Source: Polyangiales bacterium (GTDB lineage Bacteria; Myxococcota_A; Polyangia; Polyangiales; CBDCBC01). Taken from it: 64,000 nucleotides of DNA. Positions 4,523-54,822 of this stretch are shown one piece after another. Below the pieces are notes generated by a model, which did not search any database, had not been told where the DNA came from, and worked only from the letters and a program-made list of their open reading frames with translations. The stretch spans positions 20,846-84,845 of the forward strand of contig JBGAKI010000002.1 of the NCBI GenBank assembly GCA_044224525.1. The letters are read 5' to 3'. The position numbers and the translations under genes are program-made. Numbering within the stretch: the stretch's first letter is position 1; every line of letters starts with the position of its first letter.

Positions 4523-5232
4523 TGGTGATGAAGGTTTTTGACGGCGACCCGCGCGACGGTTTAGAGTCGGAGCGCATGCCTTTTAATCGCATTCGCGTTG
4601 AGCACGTGAGCAAACGTCATGGCCGCACCATGGCGTTGAGCGACGTCGAGCTAACGCTTGATGCCGGGCGATTACATATCATTGAAGGGCCCAACGGTTC
4701 GGGAAAAAGCACCCTACTTTCGCTACTTGCGTTGCTCAGTCGCCCGACAACAGGCGCGATTCGTTATGGCGAGCACGAAGGCCAACATGAACGCAACTGG
4801 CTGCATGCCCATATTGGCTTATTGAGTCATGAGCCGATGGTCTATCCTGATTTGTCGGGTTTTGAGAATCTTTGGTTTGCAGCCAGGCTAGCGATGTTGA
4901 AGCATCCTGAGCATCGCATTATTCAGCTCTGTGAACAATGCGACCTTGGCGAGTGGGTGACGCGGCCGGCGCGCACGTATTCGCGCGGACAACTGCAACG
5001 GTTGAGCCTTGCGCGCACGCTGATTCACGTGCCGAAGCTTTTGCTTTTGGACGAGCCCACGGTGGCGCTTGATCATTCAAGTAGCAACCGTGTTGTGAAC
5101 GTGGTGAAAGCAGAAGCCACTCGCGGTGCGATCGTGGTGGTTGTTACGCATGACGTAGAACTTATTTCGGCGCTCGGCGCGGATGCTAAACGCTTCCGTC
5201 TTGAGCAGGGCCGCCTTGGGGAGGCCGCGTGA
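4519..5232 (+). CDS. ccmA: ABC transporter ATP-binding protein, CcmA-like heme exporter
   Basis: Walker A GPNGSGKST, signature YSRGQLQRL, Walker B LLLLDEP. 4-nt overlap with hemW and with the CcmB-like gene. The true start may be the internal MPFNRIRVEH. Confidence 0.75.
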   Translation: MMVMKVFDGDPRDGLESERMPFNRIRVEHVSKRHGRTMALSDVELTLDAGRLHIIEGPNGSGKSTLLSLLALLSRPTTGAIRYGEHEGQHERNWLHAHIGLLSHEPMVYPDLSGFENLWFAARLAMLKHPEHRIIQLCEQCDLGEWVTRPARTYSRGQLQRLSLARTLIHVPKLLLLDEPTVALDHSSSNRVVNVVKAEATRGAIVVVVTHDVELISALGADAKRFRLEQGRLGEAA

Positions 5233-5906: not shown

Positions 5907-5976
5907 TTCTGCGTTTCGCGTTCTGCGTTTCGCGTTCTGCGTTTCGCGTTCTGCGTTTCGCGTTCTGCGTTTCGCG
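5907..5976. repeat. Perfect tandem repeat, 5 x 14 bp (ttctgcgtttcgcg)
   Basis: Read directly. Five identical units start right after the ccmB stop and end 2 nt before the stop of the convergent tlpA-like gene. Confidence 0.95.
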
Positions 5977-15469: not shown

Positions 15470-17998
<2,529 letters not shown>

Positions 17999-20035: not shown

Positions 20036-20068
20036 CCAGTTGACTACCAGTTGACTACCAGTTGACTA
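20036..20068. repeat. Tandem repeat, 3 x 11 bp (ccagttgacta)
   Basis: Read directly. It begins 4 nt after the stop of the upstream gene, and each unit carries a TTGACT hexamer. Confidence 0.9.
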
Positions 20069-20098: not shown

Positions 20099-20569
20099 AT
20101 GAGTGCGCTGCTTGCCTATTTTCACTATTTCGGTTTTGCACTGTGTGTCGCTGGTGTGCTTTTGCGTGGAAGAGGTTTTAAGCAAAGCAAAACGACGCCC
20201 AGTGTCGAGGCCACCAGCTTGACCCTGCTCGGTGATAACTTATGGGGGGTGGGCGCGCTGTTGATGCCAATTACAGGGTTCATTCGCGCATCGGGCTTAT
20301 ATGAAAAGCCTTGGGAATTTTATCTACACAACCATTTGTTTTGGACGAAAGTTGGGCTCTTTGCGGTGATTGGCGTTATCGAAACGCCGATTATGATTCA
20401 GCTGATTCGTTTTCGGCGCGCTCGAAAAGCTGATCAGCCGCTAGCGCTTGGCGCGCTGACTTTTGCGAAATACTATCGCATCAACCATATTGAACTTGGT
20501 TTGCTTTTTTTGATTCCGATTTTGGCGGTGATGTTGCATCGGGGCGTCGGATACGTTGCACCGCATTAG
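20099..20569 (+). CDS. Hypothetical integral membrane protein (about 4 TM segments)
   Basis: Hydrophobic segments throughout. ATG at 20099; the ORF track uses an upstream TTG at 20078. Confidence 0.6.
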   Translation: MSALLAYFHYFGFALCVAGVLLRGRGFKQSKTTPSVEATSLTLLGDNLWGVGALLMPITGFIRASGLYEKPWEFYLHNHLFWTKVGLFAVIGVIETPIMIQLIRFRRARKADQPLALGALTFAKYYRINHIELGLLFLIPILAVMLHRGVGYVAPH

Positions 20570-21777
20570 CTTGCGGCTGTAACACGTGCGACGAGGAATT
20601 TGAGATAGCGGCCTTCGGGGTGCGAGACCAATACCGGATGATCGGGCGCGTGGCCCACGTCGTGAATGATTTGAAGGTTAACTTTGGCGTGGTACGCCGC
20701 TTTGGCGAGCACTTCGTGAAAAGCGTCGGGCGACACTTGCGCGGTGCAGCTCGCGGTTGCGATCAAGCCGCCGCGATCGACCACGCGCAGGGCTTTTTCA
20801 TTGAGATGAAAATAGGCCTTAAGCGCCGCGTCACGTTGGTCTTTGCTTCTGGCCATGCTCGGCGGGTCGCAGATCACAACGTCGTAGCGCTTGGCTTGCG
20901 AATGGGCGCGCGTTAAAAACTCGCTGACATCTTCGGCGACGAAAAGATCTGACGCGGGGTTGAAACCATTGAGCGTGTGATTGTGTTTTGCGTTTTCGAT
21001 GGCTCCCGGGGAAATGTCGACTTGTGTCACCTGGGTTGCCCCGCCGCGACGCGCATAGAGCCCAAAAGCACCTGTGTAGGCGAAAAGATTGAGCACGCTT
21101 TTGTTGTGTGTGATGGTTTCTATCCACGCGCGATTGTCGCGGTGATCTAAAAATAGCCCTGACTTTTGGCCGCGTTCAAAGTTGACGTTGAACTTGAGGC
21201 CGTTTTCGAGCACCTCAAGCGTGGCTGGTGCGCCCTGCCCCTTGAGGATGTTGAGCCTTGAGCCCTTGGAGTCGTCGTCGTGTTTGTGTACGATGCCTTG
21301 GATGTTTGAATCAAGCTCGCTCAGCGTTTGGACAACTGTTGGAAGCAAGGTCTTGATGCTTTCGGCGTAAGTCAGCGCAACCAAATGATCGGCATAGCGA
21401 TCGATGACAAGCCCGGGCAATAGATCGCCCTCACCAAAAATGACGCGATACGCATTGGTGTGCGGCGCCTCATGAAGCGTGGCGCGCGCATGCCATGCAG
21501 CACGCACACGCTCTTTGACGAGCGCGGCGGGATCTTGAAGCTTGCGCGAAAAGATGCGCAGTGCGATCGGCGATGTGGCGTCCCAAAGACCCAAACACTG
21601 TGCGTCTTTGGCCTTAACATTCACCCAAGTGCCCGAGGTGAAGCGCGCGCTCTTGGGCACGTGGTCGCGATAAATCCAGGGGTGCCCGCTTGTGATCACC
21701 TTGTGCATGGAGGCAGGTAGCTCGACCACGGGCAGCTTGGGCACTACCGGACGAATATTGACCGTGTCTCGTCGCAT
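20566..21777 (-). CDS. Class I SAM-dependent rRNA methyltransferase, RlmI-like
   Basis: LNLFAYTGAFGLYA (SAM motif I) and VICDPPS (motif IV). The internal start MRRDTVNI... gives about 403 aa and removes the overlap with rimO. Confidence 0.8.
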   Translation of the reverse strand: MRRDTVNIRPVVPKLPVVELPASMHKVITSGHPWIYRDHVPKSARFTSGTWVNVKAKDAQCLGLWDATSPIALRIFSRKLQDPAALVKERVRAAWHARATLHEAPHTNAYRVIFGEGDLLPGLVIDRYADHLVALTYAESIKTLLPTVVQTLSELDSNIQGIVHKHDDDSKGSRLNILKGQGAPATLEVLENGLKFNVNFERGQKSGLFLDHRDNRAWIETITHNKSVLNLFAYTGAFGLYARRGGATQVTQVDISPGAIENAKHNHTLNGFNPASDLFVAEDVSEFLTRAHSQAKRYDVVICDPPSMARSKDQRDAALKAYFHLNEKALRVVDRGGLIATASCTAQVSPDAFHEVLAKAAYHAKVNLQIIHDVGHAPDHPVLVSHPEGRYLKFLVARVTAAS

Positions 21778-21781
21778 GGGC

Positions 21782-23203
21782 TTAACCGTTGGCCCCAAGG
21801 ACTCGCAGATGTTTTCGCGCGTTTGTGTTGCCGGCGGCCGACTGCAGTCGACCGACAAGGTCGTAATCGGCGGATTTGGTGATATGCACTTTGGCGAAGG
21901 TGCCAGGTTCAATGGTTATTTGTTTACGCGCAGGCAAGGTAATGATCACTTTGCCGTCGATTTCGGGCGCTTGGCCGGCGTGACGGCCCTCAAGCAAGAA
22001 CTCGCTCTCTTCGCTTTCGCCTTCAATCAACACGTCGATGTCTTTGCCCACCCATGTTTTGTTTTTGGTGCGACTAATCGTTTGCTGCGTTTGCATCAGC
22101 GAGTGATAGCGCGCTTCGATGACATCGGGCGCGACAAGGTCAGTCATGGCGCCAGCGTGGGTGCCTTCTTCATGTGAATAGGCGAATACTGCTAAGCGAT
22201 CAAACTTCGCCCACTCAATGAATTTTTGCAGTTCGGAAAAATCGGCTTCTGTTTCGCCGGGGTGGCCCACTATGAACGCTGAACGAAAGGTCATGTTCGG
22301 GATTTTTTCGCGCATGCGCTCAACCAGCGTGTAAAGCCGCTCGCCGCCGTGACCGCGACGCATGCGGGTGAGCATGTTGTCACTTGCGTGTTGTAAGGGC
22401 ATGTCGATATAGGGCACCACCTTGGGATGCGACGCGAAGAGCTCGAAAAGTTCGTCGCTGAGTTTTTCTGGGTAAAGATAAAACACGCGCAACCAACGCA
22501 GGTGGTCAAGCTCACCCAGACGTTTGATGAGCTCGACGAGTTGACCACGTTCCTTGAGATCGCGGCCATATGAAACAGTGTCTTGGCTAATCAGATTGAG
22601 TTCGACGACGCCTTGTTCGGTGAGACGTTTGGCTTCGGCGTATAGATCGTCGATGCTGCGTGAACGCTGCTTGCCGCGAAACGATGGGATGGCGCAAAAC
22701 GAACACGCGCGTGAACAACCTTCGGCGATTTTTAGGTAAGCGCTGTAACTGTATTGTGATAGGCGCCGCGGATCGAGCGCGCTGAGCGTGTGTTCGGCGG
22801 GATTGCCGATCAGCATGCGCGGCGGAATGCTTTTTAGATCGCTCGCCTTAAGGATGTCTTTAAGTTTGAGCATGTCGCCGGTACCCAAGAAGTGGTCGAC
22901 TTCGGGCATGCTCTGAGCAAGTTCGGCGCCGTAACGTTGCGAGAGGCAGCCGGTCACCACCAGTTTTTGGCAGTTGCCATCTTGTTTGAGACGCGCCATC
23001 TCAAGAATGGTGTCGATCGACTCTTGTTTAGCAGCATCGATGAATCCACACGTATTGATTACGATAACTTGTGCAGCGTTTGGGTCTGATACATGCTGAT
23101 ACTGCTGATCGTCACTGACACCGAGCATGACCTCGGTATCGACGCGGTTTTTAGGGCAACCGAGCGAAACGAAATGAATGGTCGGTTGAGGAGGGTTGGC
23201 CAT
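21782..23203 (-). CDS. rimO: Ribosomal protein S12 methylthiotransferase
   Basis: MANPPQPTIHFVSLGCPKNRVDTE is collinear with the E. coli RimO N-terminus. Radical SAM CSRACSFCAIP and a C-terminal TRAM-like region. Confidence 0.9.
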   Translation of the reverse strand: MANPPQPTIHFVSLGCPKNRVDTEVMLGVSDDQQYQHVSDPNAAQVIVINTCGFIDAAKQESIDTILEMARLKQDGNCQKLVVTGCLSQRYGAELAQSMPEVDHFLGTGDMLKLKDILKASDLKSIPPRMLIGNPAEHTLSALDPRRLSQYSYSAYLKIAEGCSRACSFCAIPSFRGKQRSRSIDDLYAEAKRLTEQGVVELNLISQDTVSYGRDLKERGQLVELIKRLGELDHLRWLRVFYLYPEKLSDELFELFASHPKVVPYIDMPLQHASDNMLTRMRRGHGGERLYTLVERMREKIPNMTFRSAFIVGHPGETEADFSELQKFIEWAKFDRLAVFAYSHEEGTHAGAMTDLVAPDVIEARYHSLMQTQQTISRTKNKTWVGKDIDVLIEGESEESEFLLEGRHAGQAPEIDGKVIITLPARKQITIEPGTFAKVHITKSADYDLVGRLQSAAGNTNARKHLRVLGANG

Positions 23204-24829: not shown

Positions 24830-25773
24830 GAGCCTTTAACTTTTGCGAGCAGCGCATCGATGATTTCAGCGGCAAGGTCGCGCTTTAAGATGGGGCCCAT
24901 CGCTTGGATGCCGGTCGGGCTCGTCACGTTAACCTCGATCAGTTTTCCGGCGAGAATATCGAGGCCAACAAACCACAAACCGTCGGCTTTAAAGCGCGGC
25001 GCAAGCTTGGCGACAATGTCGCGATCGTGTGTGGTCAGTGTGTCGGCTTCGGCGCGGGCGCCGATGGCGAGGTTACTGCGAATGTCATCGGCGCGCGGAA
25101 TGCGGCGCATCGAGCCTAGGATTTGGCCGTCGAGTACGAGCACACGTTTGTCGCCTTCGCTTTGAATTTCGGGCATGAACGCCTGCACCATGACTAAACG
25201 TTTGCCGAGCCTTGTTTGCAGCTCGACGATACCGCGATAGTTGGTGTCGCTTGCGCGCAGCACCATCACACCTTCGCCGCCTTTGCCGTCGAGCGGTTTG
25301 ATCACTGCTTGGCCGCCCTGTGCATCGACAAAGCTGCGGATCTCGGTGTGGTCGCTGGTGACGATGGTCGGCGGCATCAGATCGGCAAAAAAATGCGTGT
25401 AGAGTTTTTCGTTGGCCTCGCGCAAACCACGAGGGTCGTTGAGCACAAGGGTTTGTGAGCGCGCAAGTTCGAGAATTTGTGTAGCCCACAAATAGGCGTC
25501 GTCGAAGGGAGGCTCTTTACGAATCAGAACAGCAGCATAATCGTCAAGGTAAACTCGGCTCACCTCACCAAGCTGTAAGGGTGGGTCACTTGCGCGCGAT
25601 GCTTGTGCTGGGCGCGCGTAGGCAAATGCGCGCGCTTGTTCGAGCCCCAAATCGCTGACCAAACAATGTTCGATTTGAAATCCGCGTTTTTGTAACTCGA
25701 GCATCCAGGCAAACGAAGTATCGCTTGCCGGGCGAACGGTGTGCACGGGATCCATGACAAAGAGAAAGCGCAT
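24826..25773 (-). CDS. gshB: Glutathione synthetase (ATP-grasp)
   Basis: MRFLFVMDPVHTVRPASDTSFAWMLELQKRGF is collinear with the E. coli GshB N-terminus; ATP-grasp C-part. Confidence 0.9.
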   Translation of the reverse strand: MRFLFVMDPVHTVRPASDTSFAWMLELQKRGFQIEHCLVSDLGLEQARAFAYARPAQASRASDPPLQLGEVSRVYLDDYAAVLIRKEPPFDDAYLWATQILELARSQTLVLNDPRGLREANEKLYTHFFADLMPPTIVTSDHTEIRSFVDAQGGQAVIKPLDGKGGEGVMVLRASDTNYRGIVELQTRLGKRLVMVQAFMPEIQSEGDKRVLVLDGQILGSMRRIPRADDIRSNLAIGARAEADTLTTHDRDIVAKLAPRFKADGLWFVGLDILAGKLIEVNVTSPTGIQAMGPILKRDLAAEIIDALLAKVKGS

Positions 25774-25852
25774 TGCGGCTAAGTTTGGCGCATTGGGCTT
25801 GCCTAATCAAGCCCGGCTCGTATGGTTAGCGCGTTTATTGAACGAGGACGTC

Positions 25853-27544
25853 ATGCGAATTATCTCATTGATAACAACCCTTTCGGTTCTTCTTTTTGTT
25901 ACAAGCGCTCAAGGCGAACAAAAAACGCATTTCAGCGAATATGCGGTGGTTGCGGGCGAGGCGCAGGCTGCACAAGCGGGCGCGCAGATTATTGAGCAGG
26001 GCGGTAGTGCGGCCGATGCGGCGGCGGCGGCGATGTTAACGCTCGGATTGACGAGCCCGATGTCGAGTGGTTTTGCCGGTGGCGGATGGGGTTTGTATTA
26101 CGACGCCAAAACGGCCCAAACCGTGTTTCTTGATTTTCGCGAACGCGCTCCAAAAATGGCATCACCGAACATGTTCGTAAAGCAAAAAAATCCGGCAGAG
26201 GCATCGCGTATTGGCGGTCTCGCAGTGGCTGTGCCCGGAGAACCCAAAGGGATAGAGCAGCTGGTTAAACGTTTTGGTAAACTCGATCTTGAACATGTGA
26301 CCGCGCCCGCTCGCCGCTTGGCTGAGAATGGCTTTTATTTGTCGGGCTATTTTGTGCAGATGGCAGGCAAGTTTAAAAGCCAGATTTACAAGGACCCGTA
26401 TGCGTCGACGTGGTTCAACAATGTCGGGCGCATTGAAGCTGGGACCGTGCAGCGCAATCCGGCCTTAGCAGAAGTGCTTGCTTGTTTTGCACGCGAAGGT
26501 TCGAGTTGTTTTTATACCGGTAAAGTGGCTAAGGCGATGGTCGCTGAGATCAAAAAGCGCGGAGGCGTCTTGTCGCTAGAGGATCTGAAAGACTATCAAG
26601 TGTTTGAGCGACAAACGCTGAGCGCCGAACATTTTGGTTATGAGTTTGTGACAGCGCCTGCGCCCAGTGCAGGCGGATACATCATGCTTGCAAGCCTTGG
26701 GCTTTTAGAAGAGTGGCTTGGTAAGCGCAAACCAAGCGAGAACGCCGAGTGGTACCATATGCTTGCAGAATCATGGAAGGGGCCTTTTATCGATCGCACT
26801 CAATACATCACCGACCCTGTCGACACGACCGTGTTGATGAGCGAGCTGCTTAACCCGGCCCGCATTGCCAAGCGCGCCAAGGTTTTCAATCGGCAAACTG
26901 CGCAAGAGCCGGAAAAATATGACGTTCCACTGGGTGAGCGCGCGCGCAAGAACTATCCCGCTGAAGACCATGGCACGTCACACGTGTGCGTGGTTGATAA
27001 AGAAGGCAACGTGGCGTCGTTCACCACGAGCGTGAACTTGCCGTTTGGCGCTGGATTTAGCGTACATGGCATGTTTATGAACGACACGATGGACGACTTT
27101 AACCAACCTGGAGGTGCGAGCAACGCTTTTGGTTTACACAGCGGTGAGCTCAACCAACCGAAACCAGGACGCACTCCAGTGTCGAGTACCACGCCCACGA
27201 TTGTTTTCAAGAACGGTAAGCCGGTCATGTGTGTGGGCGGCAGCGGCGGATCGCGAATTGTAACTGCTGTCGAGCAGGCGGCGCTTAGGGTGCTGCTGAT
27301 GAAGCGATCTGTGCTCGATGCTGTTACCCAACCGCGTATTCATCATCAGGCGATGCCCAACGAAATTTCGTATGAAGACATGGATGCCAAAACGATGATT
27401 GCGCTCACCAAAATGAAGCACAAGACAAGCGGTGACGCGCCTTTTTCTGGCGCAGTGCAGATGATTCATATCGGTGAGGGTAAAACGCGTTCGCTCGAAG
27501 CAGCGAGTGATCCACGCAAACAAGGGTACGCGGCGGGGCGTTAA
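25853..27544 (+). CDS. ggt: Gamma-glutamyltranspeptidase
   Basis: Signal peptide MRIISLITTLSVLLFVTSAQG (the ORF track starts earlier, at 25739). Autoprocessing/nucleophile site GTSHVCVVDKEGN. GGSGGSRI motif. Confidence 0.92.
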   Translation: MRIISLITTLSVLLFVTSAQGEQKTHFSEYAVVAGEAQAAQAGAQIIEQGGSAADAAAAAMLTLGLTSPMSSGFAGGGWGLYYDAKTAQTVFLDFRERAPKMASPNMFVKQKNPAEASRIGGLAVAVPGEPKGIEQLVKRFGKLDLEHVTAPARRLAENGFYLSGYFVQMAGKFKSQIYKDPYASTWFNNVGRIEAGTVQRNPALAEVLACFAREGSSCFYTGKVAKAMVAEIKKRGGVLSLEDLKDYQVFERQTLSAEHFGYEFVTAPAPSAGGYIMLASLGLLEEWLGKRKPSENAEWYHMLAESWKGPFIDRTQYITDPVDTTVLMSELLNPARIAKRAKVFNRQTAQEPEKYDVPLGERARKNYPAEDHGTSHVCVVDKEGNVASFTTSVNLPFGAGFSVHGMFMNDTMDDFNQPGGASNAFGLHSGELNQPKPGRTPVSSTTPTIVFKNGKPVMCVGGSGGSRIVTAVEQAALRVLLMKRSVLDAVTQPRIHHQAMPNEISYEDMDAKTMIALTKMKHKTSGDAPFSGAVQMIHIGEGKTRSLEAASDPRKQGYAAGR

Positions 27545-27565
27545 CATTTTGGATGACGTGCTTTG

Positions 27566-27648
27566 GGTGACATGCACTTTAGTGCGTGTCACCCATTCTG
27601 TGAGTTACCTCAAATCCAGAGGTGACACGCACTAAAGTGCATGTCACC
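27566..27648. repeat. Inverted pair of a 28-bp near-palindromic element (ggtgacatgcactttagtgcgtgtcacc)
   Basis: Copy A at 27566-27593 and its exact reverse complement at 27621-27648, separated by 27 nt. A third copy lies at 52423-52450. Confidence 0.9.
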
Positions 27649-27707
27649 GTGAAGTGCATGTCACCGTGAAGTGCATGTCACCGTGAAGTGCATGTCACCG
27701 TAAAGTG
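27632..27707. repeat. Tandem repeat of about 4.5 x 17 bp (gtgaagtgcatgtcacc), derived from one half of the 28-bp element
   Basis: Read directly. Units at 27632, 27649, 27666 and 27683, plus a partial unit that runs up to the stop codon of the convergent gene at 27708. Confidence 0.9.
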
Positions 27708-28214
27708 TTAGAGTTTGTGTGCGGCAATGTATTTCTGCGTGAACCCGTAGATGCGGTCGTAATGTGCTTTAGTGGTTTCGACGATTAACTTTTCGACCAT
27801 CTTGCCGAGGCCAAGAATGCGCACGTTCACGTCGCATTCGCATACGCGTTCAACGCTGTGGTCGGTTATTTTGTCGAGCCAAATTGTGCCTTGGATTTCC
27901 ACCTTGTCGGGAACTTGCGAAGGGATGACTCGGTACTGCCAACGACCGGTACTCGGATCGAAATGGCCGTGTTCAACGTATCGAACGCGTTGACCGATAA
28001 CCTTGCGCAGCAAGTCGGGGATTTCAACGTTGGGCTCAAGTGAAAGTTTACGCTCGAGGCTACCGTCGTCGTTTTTTTCGAAATCGATGATTTCAAAATG
28101 CGCAAAGCCTAAACCTTCAAGATAGGCCTCGCGGTTGTATCGTTCGTCAAAAAAAATCTTGTCCCAAAAGACGTCTTTGGAAACGTTGTAAACATTGCGA
28201 ACCTCAAAGTGCAT
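27708..28214 (-). CDS. SRPBCC-fold protein (DUF2505-like)
   Basis: 168 aa with size and pattern consistent with a START/SRPBCC-like lipid-binding fold. The assignment is weak. Confidence 0.5.
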   Translation of the reverse strand: MHFEVRNVYNVSKDVFWDKIFFDERYNREAYLEGLGFAHFEIIDFEKNDDGSLERKLSLEPNVEIPDLLRKVIGQRVRYVEHGHFDPSTGRWQYRVIPSQVPDKVEIQGTIWLDKITDHSVERVCECDVNVRILGLGKMVEKLIVETTKAHYDRIYGFTQKYIAAHKL

Positions 28215-28226
28215 AGCGCGTGGAGA

Positions 28227-29102
28227 CTATTTTGAACCAGATTTGCGCGATTTGTCACTTTTATTTCGTTTGACGCCTTTGCTCGGCTCTTCCTTCTGCG
28301 CGGGCGGGTGGCTTTGGGCCTTGGTTTTTGCTTTGTTATCTGCTGCGACCAACACGACGGTGATGTTGTCTTCGCCGCCATTTTCGTTGGCTTCCTGAAT
28401 CAGCGCCTTGCAACCCTTGTCGAGATTGCCGTCTGCCGCGAGCACAACCTCACAAAGCTTCTCGTCGCTCAGCATGCCGCTTAGACCGTCGGAGCAGAGC
28501 AAAAAGATATCACCTGGCAAAACCTCTTCGGTGGTGACGTCAACGACGACCGTGCTTTGCATGCCAAGTGCGCGGGTAATTACGTTCTTAGGAAGCTCTT
28601 GACGTTGCTCGGGAGAAATGTCTGGCAAGAAGATCATGTACTCGTTGATGAGCGAATGATCGCGGGTCAACATCGTGATCTTTTTGTCGCGTATGCGATA
28701 GGCGCGGCTATCGCCCACATGGGCAATGTATGCGCGTGCGCGATCGGGCACATGCACCAGCGCCACGACGGTCGTGCCCATCCCATACATTTCTTTGTCT
28801 GCGTAAGATGCTTCGAAGATCTTTTTGTTGGCGAGTTTTATGCCCGACACCAAACGATTTTCTTCGACTGTTAATTTAGGATCGTAGTGAAAAGGCCAGG
28901 TCACATCTTCGCGCTGCGTTTCTGAGAAAAAGCGCGAGAGCACTGCTGTGGCCATTTTGCTCGCAATGTCGCCGGCGCGATGACCGCCCATGCCGTCGGC
29001 AACCACGTAAAGAGAATGTTCTTCACAAAGGCAGAAGCTATCTTCGTTATGTTCACGTTGAAGGCCGACGTCGGTTTGACCGGCACAGGTAACCTTAATC
29101 AT
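28227..29102 (-). CDS. PP2C-family Ser/Thr protein phosphatase with a Lys-rich C-terminal tail
   Basis: GQTDVGLQREHNEDS, VADGMGGHRAGDIAS, LLCSDGL, GGEDNITVVLV. Tail KAKTKAQ...KRNKSDKSRKSGSK. Confidence 0.9.
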   Translation of the reverse strand: MIKVTCAGQTDVGLQREHNEDSFCLCEEHSLYVVADGMGGHRAGDIASKMATAVLSRFFSETQREDVTWPFHYDPKLTVEENRLVSGIKLANKKIFEASYADKEMYGMGTTVVALVHVPDRARAYIAHVGDSRAYRIRDKKITMLTRDHSLINEYMIFLPDISPEQRQELPKNVITRALGMQSTVVVDVTTEEVLPGDIFLLCSDGLSGMLSDEKLCEVVLAADGNLDKGCKALIQEANENGGEDNITVVLVAADNKAKTKAQSHPPAQKEEPSKGVKRNKSDKSRKSGSK

Positions 29103-29262
29103 GATAGCTACGCATCACCCTTAGCGGATGATTTTAACCCATATCCGAGCGACTGTCCGCCCCTTGGGGATAAAAACACGAAAAAAGACGGGTCGATTGC
29201 AGGCGGACGCAAGACTGATATAGGCTATATTGGCGGGCGATCAGGTCCTAAACGAGCTTTTA

Positions 29263-30114
29263 ATGCGCGCAAACACACTATCTAATCGGTCACGGGTCAT
29301 TTTAGGCGATAGCCTTGAGGTCCTTCGCACCTTGCCCTCGCAATCGGTGGACCTTGTGTATATCGACCCGCCCTTCAACACAGGCAAGGTGCAAAAGCGC
29401 GTGTTTCTAAAAACCACACGCACTGAAGCGGGCCAGGGCACACGGCGAGGTTTTCAAGGGCAGCACTATCAAAGCGAAGTGCAGAGCGAAGCGGCTTACG
29501 GCGACAAGTTCGACGATTACCTGGCATTCTTAAAGCCGCGCATCGAGGAGACCCATCGCGTGTTGAAGATGACCGGGTCTTTTTACTTTCATATCGATTA
29601 TCGCGAAGTGCATTATTGCAAGGTGCTGATCGATGGCATCTTTGGGCGCGACAATTTTTTGAACGAGATTATTTGGGCATACGACTACGGTGCGCGGGCC
29701 ACCAAACGTTGGCCGGCAAAACACGACAACATCTTGTTTTACGCGCGCGATAAAGGTCAGTATTATTTTGACACTACAGAAGTCGATCGCATTCCGTATA
29801 TGGCGCCAGGCTTGGTGGGCGAGGAAAAAGCTGCAAAGGGAAAACTGCCTACCGATACGTGGTGGCACACCATTGTGAGCCCCACAGGCAAAGAAAAGGT
29901 GGGTTACCCCACACAAAAGCCACTGGGCATTTTGCGGCGCATTGTGCGCGCGTCGTGTCCGCCCGAAGGCGTGGTGCTCGATTTTTTTGCCGGCAGCGGC
30001 ACGACGGGCCACGCTGCACTTGAGTCAGGCAGGCAAGCGATTTTGGTCGACGCGAACCCCGAAGCCGTCGAGATTATCGAACGGCGGCTAAAGCGCGTTA
30101 GTTTGCAGGCTTGA
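29263..30114 (+). CDS. Site-specific DNA methyltransferase, beta-class (N6-adenine or N4-cytosine); orphan
   Basis: Motif IV DLVYIDPPFNTG precedes motif I VLDFFAGSGTTGHAA, with YPTQKPLGIL between them. No nuclease gene is adjacent. The ORF track uses an upstream TTG at 29230. Confidence 0.88.
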   Translation: MRANTLSNRSRVILGDSLEVLRTLPSQSVDLVYIDPPFNTGKVQKRVFLKTTRTEAGQGTRRGFQGQHYQSEVQSEAAYGDKFDDYLAFLKPRIEETHRVLKMTGSFYFHIDYREVHYCKVLIDGIFGRDNFLNEIIWAYDYGARATKRWPAKHDNILFYARDKGQYYFDTTEVDRIPYMAPGLVGEEKAAKGKLPTDTWWHTIVSPTGKEKVGYPTQKPLGILRRIVRASCPPEGVVLDFFAGSGTTGHAALESGRQAILVDANPEAVEIIERRLKRVSLQA

Positions 30115-30697: not shown

Positions 30698-30842
30698 AGG
30701 TTGAGTTGAACAGGCTCGGGAAGAGGCTAAACCCGCTCACTTTTCGTTGCGCCGCTGCGCGACGAGAAAGAGCGCTACGCCTTTGGCTTCGCGAATCGTT
30801 CGCTACTGTTTAGCCCCTTCCCGCGCCTGCTCAACTCAACCT
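30698..30842. repeat. ~145-bp long-hairpin intergenic repeat, copy 1
   Basis: ~34-nt arms aggttgagttgaacaggctcgggaagaggctaaa / tttagccccttcccgcgcctgctcaactcaacct flank a core shared with 48878-49022 and 44560-44705. Confidence 0.85.
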
Positions 30843-44559: not shown

Positions 44560-44705
44560 AACCGAGTGGGCACACTGAGTTCAGGAGGGCCAAACCCGCT
44601 CACTGGCCGGCGCGCCGCAGCGCGACGCGGAATAGCGCTAAGCCTTCGGCTCCGCGAATCGTTTGCCACGGTTTGCCCTGCCGAGCTCGATGTGCCCGCT
44701 CGGTT
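44560..44705. repeat. ~145-bp long-hairpin intergenic repeat, copy 2 (divergent arms)
   Basis: Arms aaccgagtgggcacactgag.. / ..ctcgatgtgcccgctcggtt. The core shares gctcac...cgc.gcgcgacg...agcgct..gccttcggctccgcgaatcgtt with copies 1 and 3. Followed by T7. Confidence 0.8.
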
Positions 44706-48877: not shown

Positions 48878-49022
48878 AAGTTTGTGTGAGCGGGCTCGAG
48901 AAGGGGCTAAACCTGCTCACTTTTCGTTGCGCCGCTGCGCGACGAGAAAGAGCACTGCGCCTTCGGCTCCGCGACTCGTTCGCTACTTTTTAGCCCCTTC
49001 TCGAGCCTGCTCACACAAACTT
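48878..49022. repeat. ~145-bp long-hairpin intergenic repeat, copy 3
   Basis: 34-nt arms aagtttgtgtgagcgggctcgagaaggggctaaa / tttagccccttctcgagcctgctcacacaaactt, with a single G-T pair. The core is nearly identical to copy 1. Confidence 0.9.
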
Positions 49023-49082
49023 AACCTTGATTTATTGGCGGCAGGGGACACGTTTCACGTGAAATAACATGTGGTCGACACA

Positions 49083-50249
49083 ATGAGTTCGTTTGATAAA
49101 ACCGTGCGCGCAAAGCTCGATGCGTTGATGGCTGCGAACGCACTTAGGACGGAACGGGTGCTTGCGGCGGCCGATGGGGCGTTTGTAGAGGTTGGCGGCA
49201 AACGGCTATTGAGCCTGGCCTCGAATAACTATTTGGGGCTTAGCCAAAATACGGAGCTTAGGGCTGCGGCAATACAAGCGCTTGATCAGTGGGGCGTGGG
49301 AAGCGGGGGTTCGCGGCTGGTCTGCGGCACCACAAACGCACATCGCCAATGTGAAGATGCGTTTGCGGCTTATGTTGAGCGGCCCGCGGCGATGTATTTT
49401 GCGAATGCATACGCGGCTAATTTGGGGGTAATTCCGGCTTTATTTGGCGAAGGTGATCTGATTTTGAGCGATGCGCTCAATCATGCGAGCCTGATCGACG
49501 CGTGCCGTCTTTCGCGGGCCGAAAAGAAAACCTATGCGCATTTGGACCTTGAGGCGGTGGAGAACATTTTGCGAGCGGAACGCGCCAGACACAAACATTG
49601 CCTGCTTGTAAGCGAAGCGGCGTTTTCGATGGATGGCGATTGCGCCGATATGTCGGCTTATGAGCGCTCGCCGATCGGCAGGAGGCCATGATGATCGATG
49701 AAGCGTATTTCGATCGGCGTATTTGGACCCGGCGGACGGGGGCTTTGCGCACAACATGGGGTCGAGCCCGATATTGGTGTGTACGGCCTTGGCAAAGCAT
49801 TTGGACTTTTTGGGGCGTTTGTAAGCGCAAGCGATGAAACCATTCGGCTGCTGCGCAGCAGCGCCCGCGCGTACATTTATACGACCGCGGCACCGGCTTT
49901 TTGGCTTGAGGTTGTCAAAGCGGGGATTGGGTTGGTCGAACGCGCGGATGCGGCTCGAGCCACGGTGATGGCACACGCCGAACGCCTGCGAAGCGGCCTG
50001 CAGAGGGCAGGGTTGCACGTGAAACCAGGTACAGCACCGATTATTCCTTTAATTATAGGTACTAACGACGCCAGTTTGAAAATCGCGGCACTTTGCGCAG
50101 AAAAGGGGCTTTTTGTGCAGGCGATTCGCCCGCCCACGGTGCCCGAAGGAACAAGTCGGTTGCGCCTCGTGCCGACCGCAGCGCACACAAGCCAAGACAT
50201 CGAACACGCGCTAAGCTTGCTCATTGAAGCATGTCGCGCGCAAAGATAA
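49083..50249 (+). pseudogene. bioF: 8-amino-7-oxononanoate synthase (BioF), interrupted by in-frame TGA TGA caused by two compensating 1-nt indels
   Basis: ORFs 49071..49691 and 49698..50249 share one frame and together are collinear with BioF. The conserved ...LADRQEAMMIDEAY segment is readable only in another frame, between about 49665 and 49709. Confidence 0.8.
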
Positions 50250-52225: not shown

Positions 52226-52299
<74 letters not shown>

Positions 52300-52308
52300 C
52301 TGATTGTG

Positions 52309-52403
52309 GTCCACGTACAGTTGTGCGTGGACCAGTTGATCATAGTCCACGTACGGTTGTGCGTGGACTAATCATTCTAGTCCACGTACGGTTGTGCGTG
52401 GAC
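52309..52403. repeat. Three copies of a 24-nt hairpin repeat (gtccacgtacRgttgtgcgtggac), 35-36 bp apart
   Basis: Copies at 52309-52332, 52345-52368 and 52380-52403. Each forms a 10-bp stem (one G-T pair) with a 4-nt loop, and the array starts 10 nt after tRNA-Ala. Confidence 0.9.
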
Positions 52404-52422: not shown

Positions 52423-52450
52423 GGTGACATGCACTTTAGTGCGTGTCACC
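52423..52450. repeat. Third copy of the 28-bp near-palindromic element
   Basis: ggtgacatgcactttagtgcgtgtcacc is identical to 27566-27593. It ends 15 nt before the serC ATG. Confidence 0.9.
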
Positions 52451-52465
52451 CAGCATGGAGTCAAG

Positions 52466-53555
<1,090 letters not shown>

Positions 53556-54737: not shown

Positions 54738-54763
54738 TCGACCCCGATCACTTCACTGGTGTG

Positions 54764-54796
54764 AGCGCCGTGCTGAAAAGTACGGCGCTTTTTTTT
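54764..54796 (+). terminator. Rho-independent terminator
   Basis: Stem agcgccgt/acggcgct with a 10-nt loop, followed by T8. Confidence 0.8.
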
Positions 54797-54822
54797 AAGC
54801 AGCTTGCGCTGTGCCAAGACGC

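Follow-up and report, generated by a model that had tools for sequence, protein, structure and literature searches.

What is the repeated palindrome that occupies most of the spacer between two converging genes on a Polyangiales contig, and by what route did it come to be there? The DNA considered is a stretch of 64,000 nucleotides (contig JBGAKI010000002.1, positions 20,846 to 84,845; hereafter the window), in which the gamma-glutamyltransferase gene ggt and a DUF2505 gene face each other with their 3′ ends, as a preliminary description of the locus had stated. Between them lie two copies of a 28-nt palindrome, in inverted orientation, and a tandem array of half of it. On balance we favour the reading that the 28-mer represents a dispersed family of non-coding hairpin repeats, of the type of the repetitive extragenic palindromes (REPs) and their hairpin-forming doublets (REPINs) and untagged in that it has no GTAG or CGTC head, and that the array was added later by slippage.

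Small palindromic repeats shape the intergenic DNA of bacteria as well as the ends of their mRNAs and the plasticity of their genomes. To our knowledge they have been studied well only in Proteobacteria, where they are defined by the GTAG tag and by the REP-associated tyrosine transposase (RAYT). The family in the window is untagged and belongs to uncultured lineages, its closest look-alikes are found in another phylum and the layout of hairpin plus half-hairpin array occurs in both.

Copies of the hairpin and the tandem array

Three exact copies of the 28-mer are present, the inverted pair 1a and 1b in the ggt/DUF2505 spacer and the singlet copy 2 at a second locus (Table 1). All three had been located in the preliminary description, and a search that allowed up to three mismatches returned the same three matches as against none in 100 dinucleotide shuffles. 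A covariance model (R1), built from 18 related hairpins described below and run on the 64 kb with its filters off, revealed no further copy; the next match has an E value of about 0.7. The window has 54% G+C, is approximately 93% coding and holds 27 spacers that total 4.6 kb. The copies are confined to two of these spacers and none lies within a gene.

Copies 1a and 2 have 30 nt in common when the CA at the 3′ side is included. The sequences that precede and follow the element are gctttg and cattct at copy 1a, cttcac and tctgga at copy 1b, and aaaacc and cagcat at copy 2. Judged from sequence, the identity at unlinked sites is due to copying and not to the independent evolution of terminators, because 28 to 30 nt are identical, the loop included, at unlinked positions with unrelated flanks.

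Each 28-mer is itself the near-perfect dyad that had been claimed, arranged as 13+2+13 nt with a single non-Watson-Crick position (8/21), T.G or C.A according to the strand. Copies 1a and 1b form an inverted repeat whose 28-nt arms are 100% complementary with 27 nt between them, in agreement with the stem and loop first proposed. The suggestion that the whole spacer derives from one motif applies to approximately 115 of its 163 nt (about 71%). It fails for the first 21 nt (27545-27565), which separate copy 1a from the ggt stop codon, and for the inter-arm segment, which has a small stem of its own.

Table 1. Features of the two loci that carry the 28-nt palindrome, in window coordinates.
Feature	Position	Strand	Remarks
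ggt, gamma-glutamyltransferase	25739-27544	+	PF01019, E 1e-137; 3′ untranslated region would carry copy 1a
Copy 1a, 28-nt palindrome GGTGACATGCACTTTAGTGCGTGTCACC	27566-27593	+	exact match; T.G at stem positions 8/21
Inter-arm segment CATTCTGTGAGTTACCTCAAATCCAGA	27594-27620		27 nt
Copy 1b, exact reverse complement of 1a	27621-27648	-	sense for the DUF2505 transcript strand
Tandem array, 17-bp unit AAGTGCATGTCACCGTG	27635-27707	+	Tandem Repeats Finder (TRF): period 17, 4.3 copies, 98% matches, score 139, no indels
DUF2505 gene, converges on ggt	27708-28214	-	PF10698, E 1.4e-14; stop codon 27708-27710
Copy 2, singlet	52423-52450	+	identical 28-mer, sense on +

The tandem array was said to comprise about 4.5 copies of the half-site, which is borne out by TRF. 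Its unit combines copy 1b's 3′ arm with 3 further nt. Since the first unit is that 3′ arm itself, the array amounts to three extra complete half-sites and a 5-nt stub, AAGTG. The same AAGTG bounds the array on both sides, and its right edge is flush with the DUF2505 stop codon. The three complete units do not differ from one another and the fourth has a single base changed, ending in GTA and not GTG, so the array would appear to be young. The units run head to tail without spacers and no cas genes occur in the window, which distinguishes the array from CRISPR arrays.

Replication slippage had been put forward as the source of the array. We infer from the sequence that slipped-strand duplication is a plausible and the simplest origin, and a local tendency to slippage is supported by two other perfect arrays, found with TRF, that fill spacers from stop to start (14 bp x 5 at 5907-5976 and 11 bp x 3 at 20036-20068). 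The first of these, with the unit TTCTGCGTTTCGCG, occupies a 71-nt spacer between convergent ccmB and thioredoxin-like genes nearly from stop to stop; it is similar to the array at ggt in filling a convergent spacer and differs in that no palindrome is involved. The second, with the unit CCAGTTGACTA, makes up most of a 45-nt spacer between co-directional genes.

Might a metagenome assembler have created or distorted the number of units, or even the inverted doublet itself? The source is a single metagenome-type contig of 104,465 bp. An independent k-mer assembly, the Logan contig L001 from SRR28480385, is identical to 27703-29747 over its 2,045 bp and breaks within the array, 5 nt past the DUF2505 stop and just before the base that tells the last unit (T) from the consensus (C). 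Since the node of the k=31 graph is unique at this point, a branch at that node would signify that the reads are heterogeneous, for which the break is a weak hint; a coverage drop would give the same break. Against an artefact, a typical read pair is longer than the complete feature (142 bp) and a 150-nt read longer than the array (73 bp), the 28-mer is intact at the second locus, both flanking genes are intact to their stop codons, and structurally equivalent layouts occur in unrelated contigs from other projects. We regard an assembly artefact as very improbable. The array in the window is known from one assembly, and the variable-number tandem repeat (VNTR) raised in the preliminary description stays a candidate reading of it.

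Related hairpins in other genomes

No exact or near-exact match to the 28-mer was obtained in 185,579 species genomes or in the Joint Genome Institute (JGI) metagenomes, two collections that do not include the source genome. Searches with ggt for relatives among species-genome contigs gave none, and an exact-protein look-up returned the single 2-kb Logan contig, with no record for ggt or serC. A database protein, P0001, is 100% identical to the ggt product and implies a start at approximately 25853. The relative that comes after it shares 53% identity, and the matches that have a name, metagenome-assembled genomes of Myxococcota, stand near 47%. The contig with the 53% relative (L032) maintains the gshB-ggt order, has a different gene downstream and carries no GGTGACA-type hairpin. 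Two of its spacers (284-432 and 4660-4826) contain long, near-perfect inverted repeats with nested arms of 21-30 nt, 53-107 nt apart, that are unrelated in sequence to the 28-mer.

No Rfam family matches the 28-mer, and the sub-threshold matches, which resemble miRNA precursors only, indicate a generic long hairpin. BLAST searches of plasmids and phages with the motif gave no match. A scan of viral contigs produced matches that were rejected as coding or chance occurrences lacking the inner pairing, and a literature search with the motif as a string found only unrelated primer or eukaryotic sequences. The family seems to be undescribed, its kind being well known.

A set of look-alikes comes from metagenomes. 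With the relaxed palindrome pattern GGTGACNNGCACNNNNGTGCNNGTCACC, 29 loci were matched there, and a single sample (IMG 3300032069) contributed 11 of these. Matches on contigs of high G+C content (L004, L006, L011 and others) were discarded as chance, being single copies with much lower model scores and no repeat family. Contigs of 45-57% G+C carry a genuine repeat family of two subtypes, a perfect form, GGTGACAGGCACC....GGTGCCTGTCACC, and a wobble form, GGTGACATGCA...GCGTGTCACC. The wobble form shares the T.G position with the window 28-mer and is identical to it at 26 (L009), 25 (L021) or 24 (L010) of 28 positions. Named protein neighbours assign the contigs with hairpins to Aminicenantes. 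The window organism is not a member of that group, its ggt being 30-32% and its uppS 44% identical to the proteins on those contigs.

The Aminicenantes hairpins begin 8-20 nt past stop codons. Three in tandem fill a convergent spacer (L009/L042), others form an inverted pair (L021) and, downstream of a ggt homologue (L040), a full hairpin is followed by two tandem units of the 3′ arm plus 9 nt with a period of 23 bp, which is the layout seen in the window at 27621-27707. Their inner stems range from 28 to 43 nt, the pairing being preserved, and the conserved feet are 14-29 nt apart. Pair 8/21 is G-C in 9 of the 18 sequences and U.G in 8. Where two assemblies of the related arrays were compared they were 99.99% identical, too close to inform on polymorphism. 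The sequence TCAAATCC, at the right end of the inter-arm segment in the window, matches the flank of Aminicenantes units (L010/L040).

Aminicenantales contigs with a ggt 74% identical to that of L010 retain the ggt-DUF6305 synteny and have no such hairpins in approximately 100 kb, so that the elements are gained and lost as insertions, a pattern expected of inserted DNA. Two DUF6305 paralogues of 34% identity, both from sample IMG 3300032069 (L040 4840-5412 and L042 681-1280), adjoin tandem hairpin arrays. The adjacency may be a coincidence because the synteny is kept in the hairpin-free relatives.

At L022 4630-4680 a dtd-like gene has a stop codon within which a GGTGACAGGC-type hairpin starts, and a T7 run follows the hairpin, indicating that some members of the Aminicenantes family double as canonical intrinsic terminators. 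Several other hairpins of the family are followed by GGATTT(T). No RAYT was identified by Pfam among open reading frames (ORFs) flanked by hairpins at the related loci. Two candidate mobilisers were rejected: 135-aa ORFs bracketed by hairpins (SXG contigs), which have no Pfam match and run antisense to an apparent rpsP-like gene, and a 149-aa ORF in L022, antisense to the apparent dtd gene.

RNA hairpin, DNA site or mobile repeat

Several questions should be addressed in assigning the element to a class. Does it act as RNA, at the end of a transcript? Is it a site on duplex DNA? Is it a mobile repeat? We consider these issues in turn.

The 163-nt spacer is predicted to fold with -88.4 kcal/mol on the + strand and -84.3 kcal/mol on the - strand, compared to about -45 for shuffles (z approximately -10.5 and -11). 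A single copy gives a 12-bp stem with a 4-nt loop, at -20.2 kcal/mol for the strand with G.U and -16.2 kcal/mol for that with C.A. With the flanking G/C pairs copy 1a reaches a 14-bp stem on the same 4-nt loop, at -25.9 kcal/mol for the + RNA and -21.9 kcal/mol for the other strand. The sense strand thus folds better than the antisense by 4 kcal/mol. In all three copies it is the G.U form that would be present in the local transcript, that of ggt on + for copy 1a, of DUF2505 on - for copy 1b, and of tRNA-Ala/serC on + for copy 2. In each 8-kb bin of the window (1-64000) the GC skew has a positive value, from +0.04 to +0.11. The window is therefore probably part of one replichore with the + strand leading throughout, in which case the three copies occupy both replication strands. 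With only three copies, it is suggestive that orientation matters at the level of RNA rather than of the replication fork.

These observations are what would be expected of a purely functional hairpin at RNA 3′ ends, a terminator or stabiliser that is immobile and maintained by selection site by site, with the array offering alternative pairing partners. The positions, 21 nt past the ggt stop, at the end of a 3′ array behind DUF2505 and after a tRNA, are also appropriate, and the L022 hairpin with its T7 run and the relatives followed by GGATTT(T) provide a precedent. Independent selection, however, leaves unexplained why loci that are unlinked agree in 28 out of 28 nt (30 out of 30 for two copies), down to the loop. 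The tails of the three copies, CAUUCUGUGAGU, UCUGGAUUUGAG and CAGCAUGGAGUC, contain no U tract, and a terminator scan was empty at both loci; lacking that tract the element is not a canonical terminator. The organism does employ canonical terminators, as a textbook bidirectional example, a hairpin with U8, lies in another convergent spacer at approximately 54763-54798. The 28-mer resembles Rho-independent bidirectional terminators in being a G+C-rich hairpin soon after stop codons and between converging genes; it differs in having no U tract on either strand and in its identical sequence at unlinked loci. Copy 2, moreover, is only 15 nt before the serC start, an odd position for a terminator. 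We consider an exclusive role at RNA 3′ ends rather unlikely.

A dimeric protein-binding site had been offered as an alternative to a REP-like element. The duplex would then bind a regulator, or else a factor of the nucleoid or of segregation, and extra binding units would be provided by the tandem half-sites. The near-perfect dyad with its conserved outer feet GGTGACA/TGTCACC, the reiteration of half-sites in direct orientation and the overlap of copy 2 with the region just upstream of serC are all compatible with this. The feet are also reminiscent of the half-sites in matS, an enterobacterial motif (GTGACRNYGTCAC), a likeness of use as a lead only. We do not favour this proposal and judge it improbable. 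Two of the three copies are located where converging genes face each other with their 3′ ends, half-sites at other positions of the window are not beyond chance, and the spacing of 14-29 nt between the feet of related hairpins, with compensating changes in the inner stem, is incompatible with the fixed footprint of a dimer. The T.G/C.A asymmetry would be meaningful only for a single strand, and together the variable distance between feet and this strand-specific wobble argue against a duplex operator.

A core site for a tyrosine recombinase, of the 11-6-11 dif/Xer-like design, is a further possibility, and one to which we give hardly any credence. The element has 28 bp, two arms of 11-13 bp and an asymmetric centre, CTTTAG. 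The inverted pair could flip the 27 bp between its arms, and copies 1a and 2, direct repeats 24.9 kb apart with a tRNA-Ala gene 123 nt before copy 2, could bracket an excisable segment of 25 kb. Yet there is no integrase or recombinase among the Pfam-scanned ORFs of the window, the repeat is outside the tRNA, the centres of the related family vary in length, and the genes between copies 1a and 2 are core ones (gdhA-like, uppS, cdsA, one of the Omp85 family and biotin genes), which also led us to reject a genomic island there. A dif site is expected once per replicon; here three copies occur within 25 kb. The 28-mer does not appear to fit the dif consensus.

How does the element compare with mobile palindromic repeats? 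REPs are 20-40 bp in length, lie for the most part downstream of genes, in the spacers of unidirectional and convergent ORFs, frequently form inverted dimers and tandem clusters, and include untagged families (PMC3733652, PMC3337134). Where a tag is present, one end of the palindrome carries a conserved, unpaired tetranucleotide, GTAG or CGTC (PMC3733652, PMC3479197). The window element has 28 nt, a stem of 12-13 bp and one T.G/C.A position, with a REPIN-type inverted doublet at one locus and a singlet at the other. In common with the REPs and REPINs of Escherichia coli bacterial interspersed mosaic elements (BIMEs) and of Pseudomonas fluorescens, it is a short imperfect palindrome, extragenic, in post-gene and convergent spacers, with a doublet foldable into one long hairpin, a singlet, local tandem clusters, a stem irregularity and lineage-specific presence (PMC3733652, PMC3337134, PMC3479197). 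It differs from them in bearing neither GTAG nor CGTC at either end, in the lack of any RAYT gene found in the 64 kb, and in its irregularity, a single T.G wobble where REPs have a mismatched bulge.

Untagged stem-loop families are known in Mycobacterium tuberculosis, Deinococcus, Bordetella, Brucella and cyanobacteria; like the 28-mer they are dispersed palindromic stem-loops with no terminal tag and no known dedicated transposase (PMC3733652). The window sequence is of a different family from these, with neither an Rfam nor a literature-string match. Miniature inverted-repeat transposable elements (MITEs) provide another comparison, as the doublet (27566-27648, 83 bp), which is non-coding, consists of a short core with perfect terminal inverted repeats of 28 bp. 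Here, though, each terminal repeat is itself a palindrome that also occurs alone, as copy 2, there is no target-site duplication, and no transposase with matching ends was seen. The REP-like label of the preliminary description is therefore retained for the resemblance, seen in the imperfect palindrome, its extragenic position at two unlinked loci, the REPIN-type doublet and a related family of the same habit. It is dropped as regards the RAYT class: in the absence of a tag and of a RAYT in the window the element is filed as a REP-like untagged stem-loop and not as a RAYT-associated REP.

A number of points weigh against a mobile, REP-like family. High copy number, tens to hundreds of copies per genome and nearly all of them extragenic, is a REP hallmark, and the 64 kb read hold three full copies at two loci. 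None of the three is abutted by GTAG/CTAC or CGTC/GACG, and no target-site duplication is visible at them. No transposase, integrase or Y1/HUH protein (PF01797) was detected in the 57 Pfam-scanned long ORFs, nor did tblastn with a RayT probe find anything convincing. The clusters described for REPs reiterate whole units or dimers with flanking DNA, whereas the window reiterates a half-unit. The orientation rule is drawn from three copies and is broken by two of ten hairpins in the related family. The likeness to the Aminicenantes family could be partly coincidental, because a perfect palindrome holds only half the information of its length and chance matches to the pattern are expected, and the match in the flank past the 28-mer (GTGTCACC-TCT-GGATTTGA in the window, GTGTCACC-GGATTTGA in L040) was picked post hoc.

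If the dispersed repeat family is nevertheless accepted, a scheme for its spread can be suggested by analogy. The hairpin might be copied and pasted as a single strand by an enzyme acting in trans and encoded outside the window, for which nucleases of the HUH/Y1 type provide the precedent; gene conversion would be an alternative route of copying. Copies would persist where they are harmless or useful, just downstream of genes. The transcribed hairpin may protect or define an mRNA 3′ end, and the doublet could give a long double-stranded RNA stem at the meeting point of the convergent transcripts. The 17-bp array would have arisen later, through slipped-strand mispairing that reiterated the 3′ arm plus 3 nt. 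The hairpin may favour this outcome, since the layout of a hairpin with 3′ half-units recurs in Aminicenantes.

A broader proposal is that all GGTGACA-footed hairpins, from the Myxococcota-like organism and from Aminicenantes, constitute one horizontally spread, tagless family that grows by reiteration of its 3′ half in post-stop and convergent spacers. If so, there should be a protein, as yet undescribed, that mobilises or binds the hairpins, and a mechanism of duplication templated by the hairpin and distinct from ordinary slippage. We consider it unlikely. REPIN-RAYT systems are described as mostly vertically inherited (bioRxiv 10.1101/2022.05.22.493013), and near-identical hairpins in a different phylum would depart from the pattern given there. 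Nothing about the locus is unusual apart from the look-alikes in another phylum and the arrays of half-units, and neither is secured. Were the shared family real, it would be a test case for the spread of tagless stem-loop repeats and would raise the matters of repeats crossing between phyla and of local tandem expansion driven by hairpins. Were it not, the 28-mer would be one more species-specific REP-like repeat and likely a marker for strain typing.

Genes and other repeats of the window

The DUF2505 protein is complete, as profile positions 16-158 of the 158 in PF10698 are covered, and the 3′ untranslated region of its gene would begin with the half-unit array, followed by copy 1b. Of 58 long ORFs in the gene map 57 were scanned with Pfam; the remaining one, of 448 aa (20566-21912), appears, on reading its translation, to encode a SAM-dependent methyltransferase. 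Scanned genes include gyrB (15470-17938), uvrB, dnaJ, miaB-like, gshB, uppS, cdsA, gdh-like and serC-like genes.

The order at copy 2 is tRNA-Ala(CGC) at 52227-52300, three 24-nt hairpins, the 28-mer, 15 nt and the serC ATG at 52466. The three hairpins (52309-52332, 52345-52368 and 52380-52403) have a different sequence, GTCCACGTAC(A/G)GTTGTGCGTGGAC, repeated with a period of 35-36 bp, each with T.G on the + strand. Triplet and 28-mer together make up a BIME-like mosaic of two stem-loop families.

A further intergenic repeat of approximately 121 bp occurs at 30713-30833 and 48893-49013, the two copies being 91% identical, with a 52-bp piece in a third spacer (44612-44663). It is bounded by terminal inverted repeats of about 20 bp, GGCTCGGGAAGGGGCTAAAC ... 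GTTTAGCCCCTTCCCGAGCC, which makes it either MITE-like or a structured RNA; at gathering score Rfam gave no match.

Two genes of the window are of separate interest. A class I/II aminotransferase, bioF-like in view of the adjoining dethiobiotin-synthase-like gene, is divided into two ORFs (49071-49691 and 49698-50249, within 49071-50249). Pfam positions of about 166-205 are missing and an imperfect 14-bp duplication (49703-49734) is located at the break, which could represent a pseudogene, a frameshift or an assembly error. The ORF at 33937-35181 matches the C-terminal domain of the Golgi casein kinase Fam20C (PF06702, E 2e-12), unusual in a bacterium, and adjoins a phosphodiester glycosidase gene, NAGPA.

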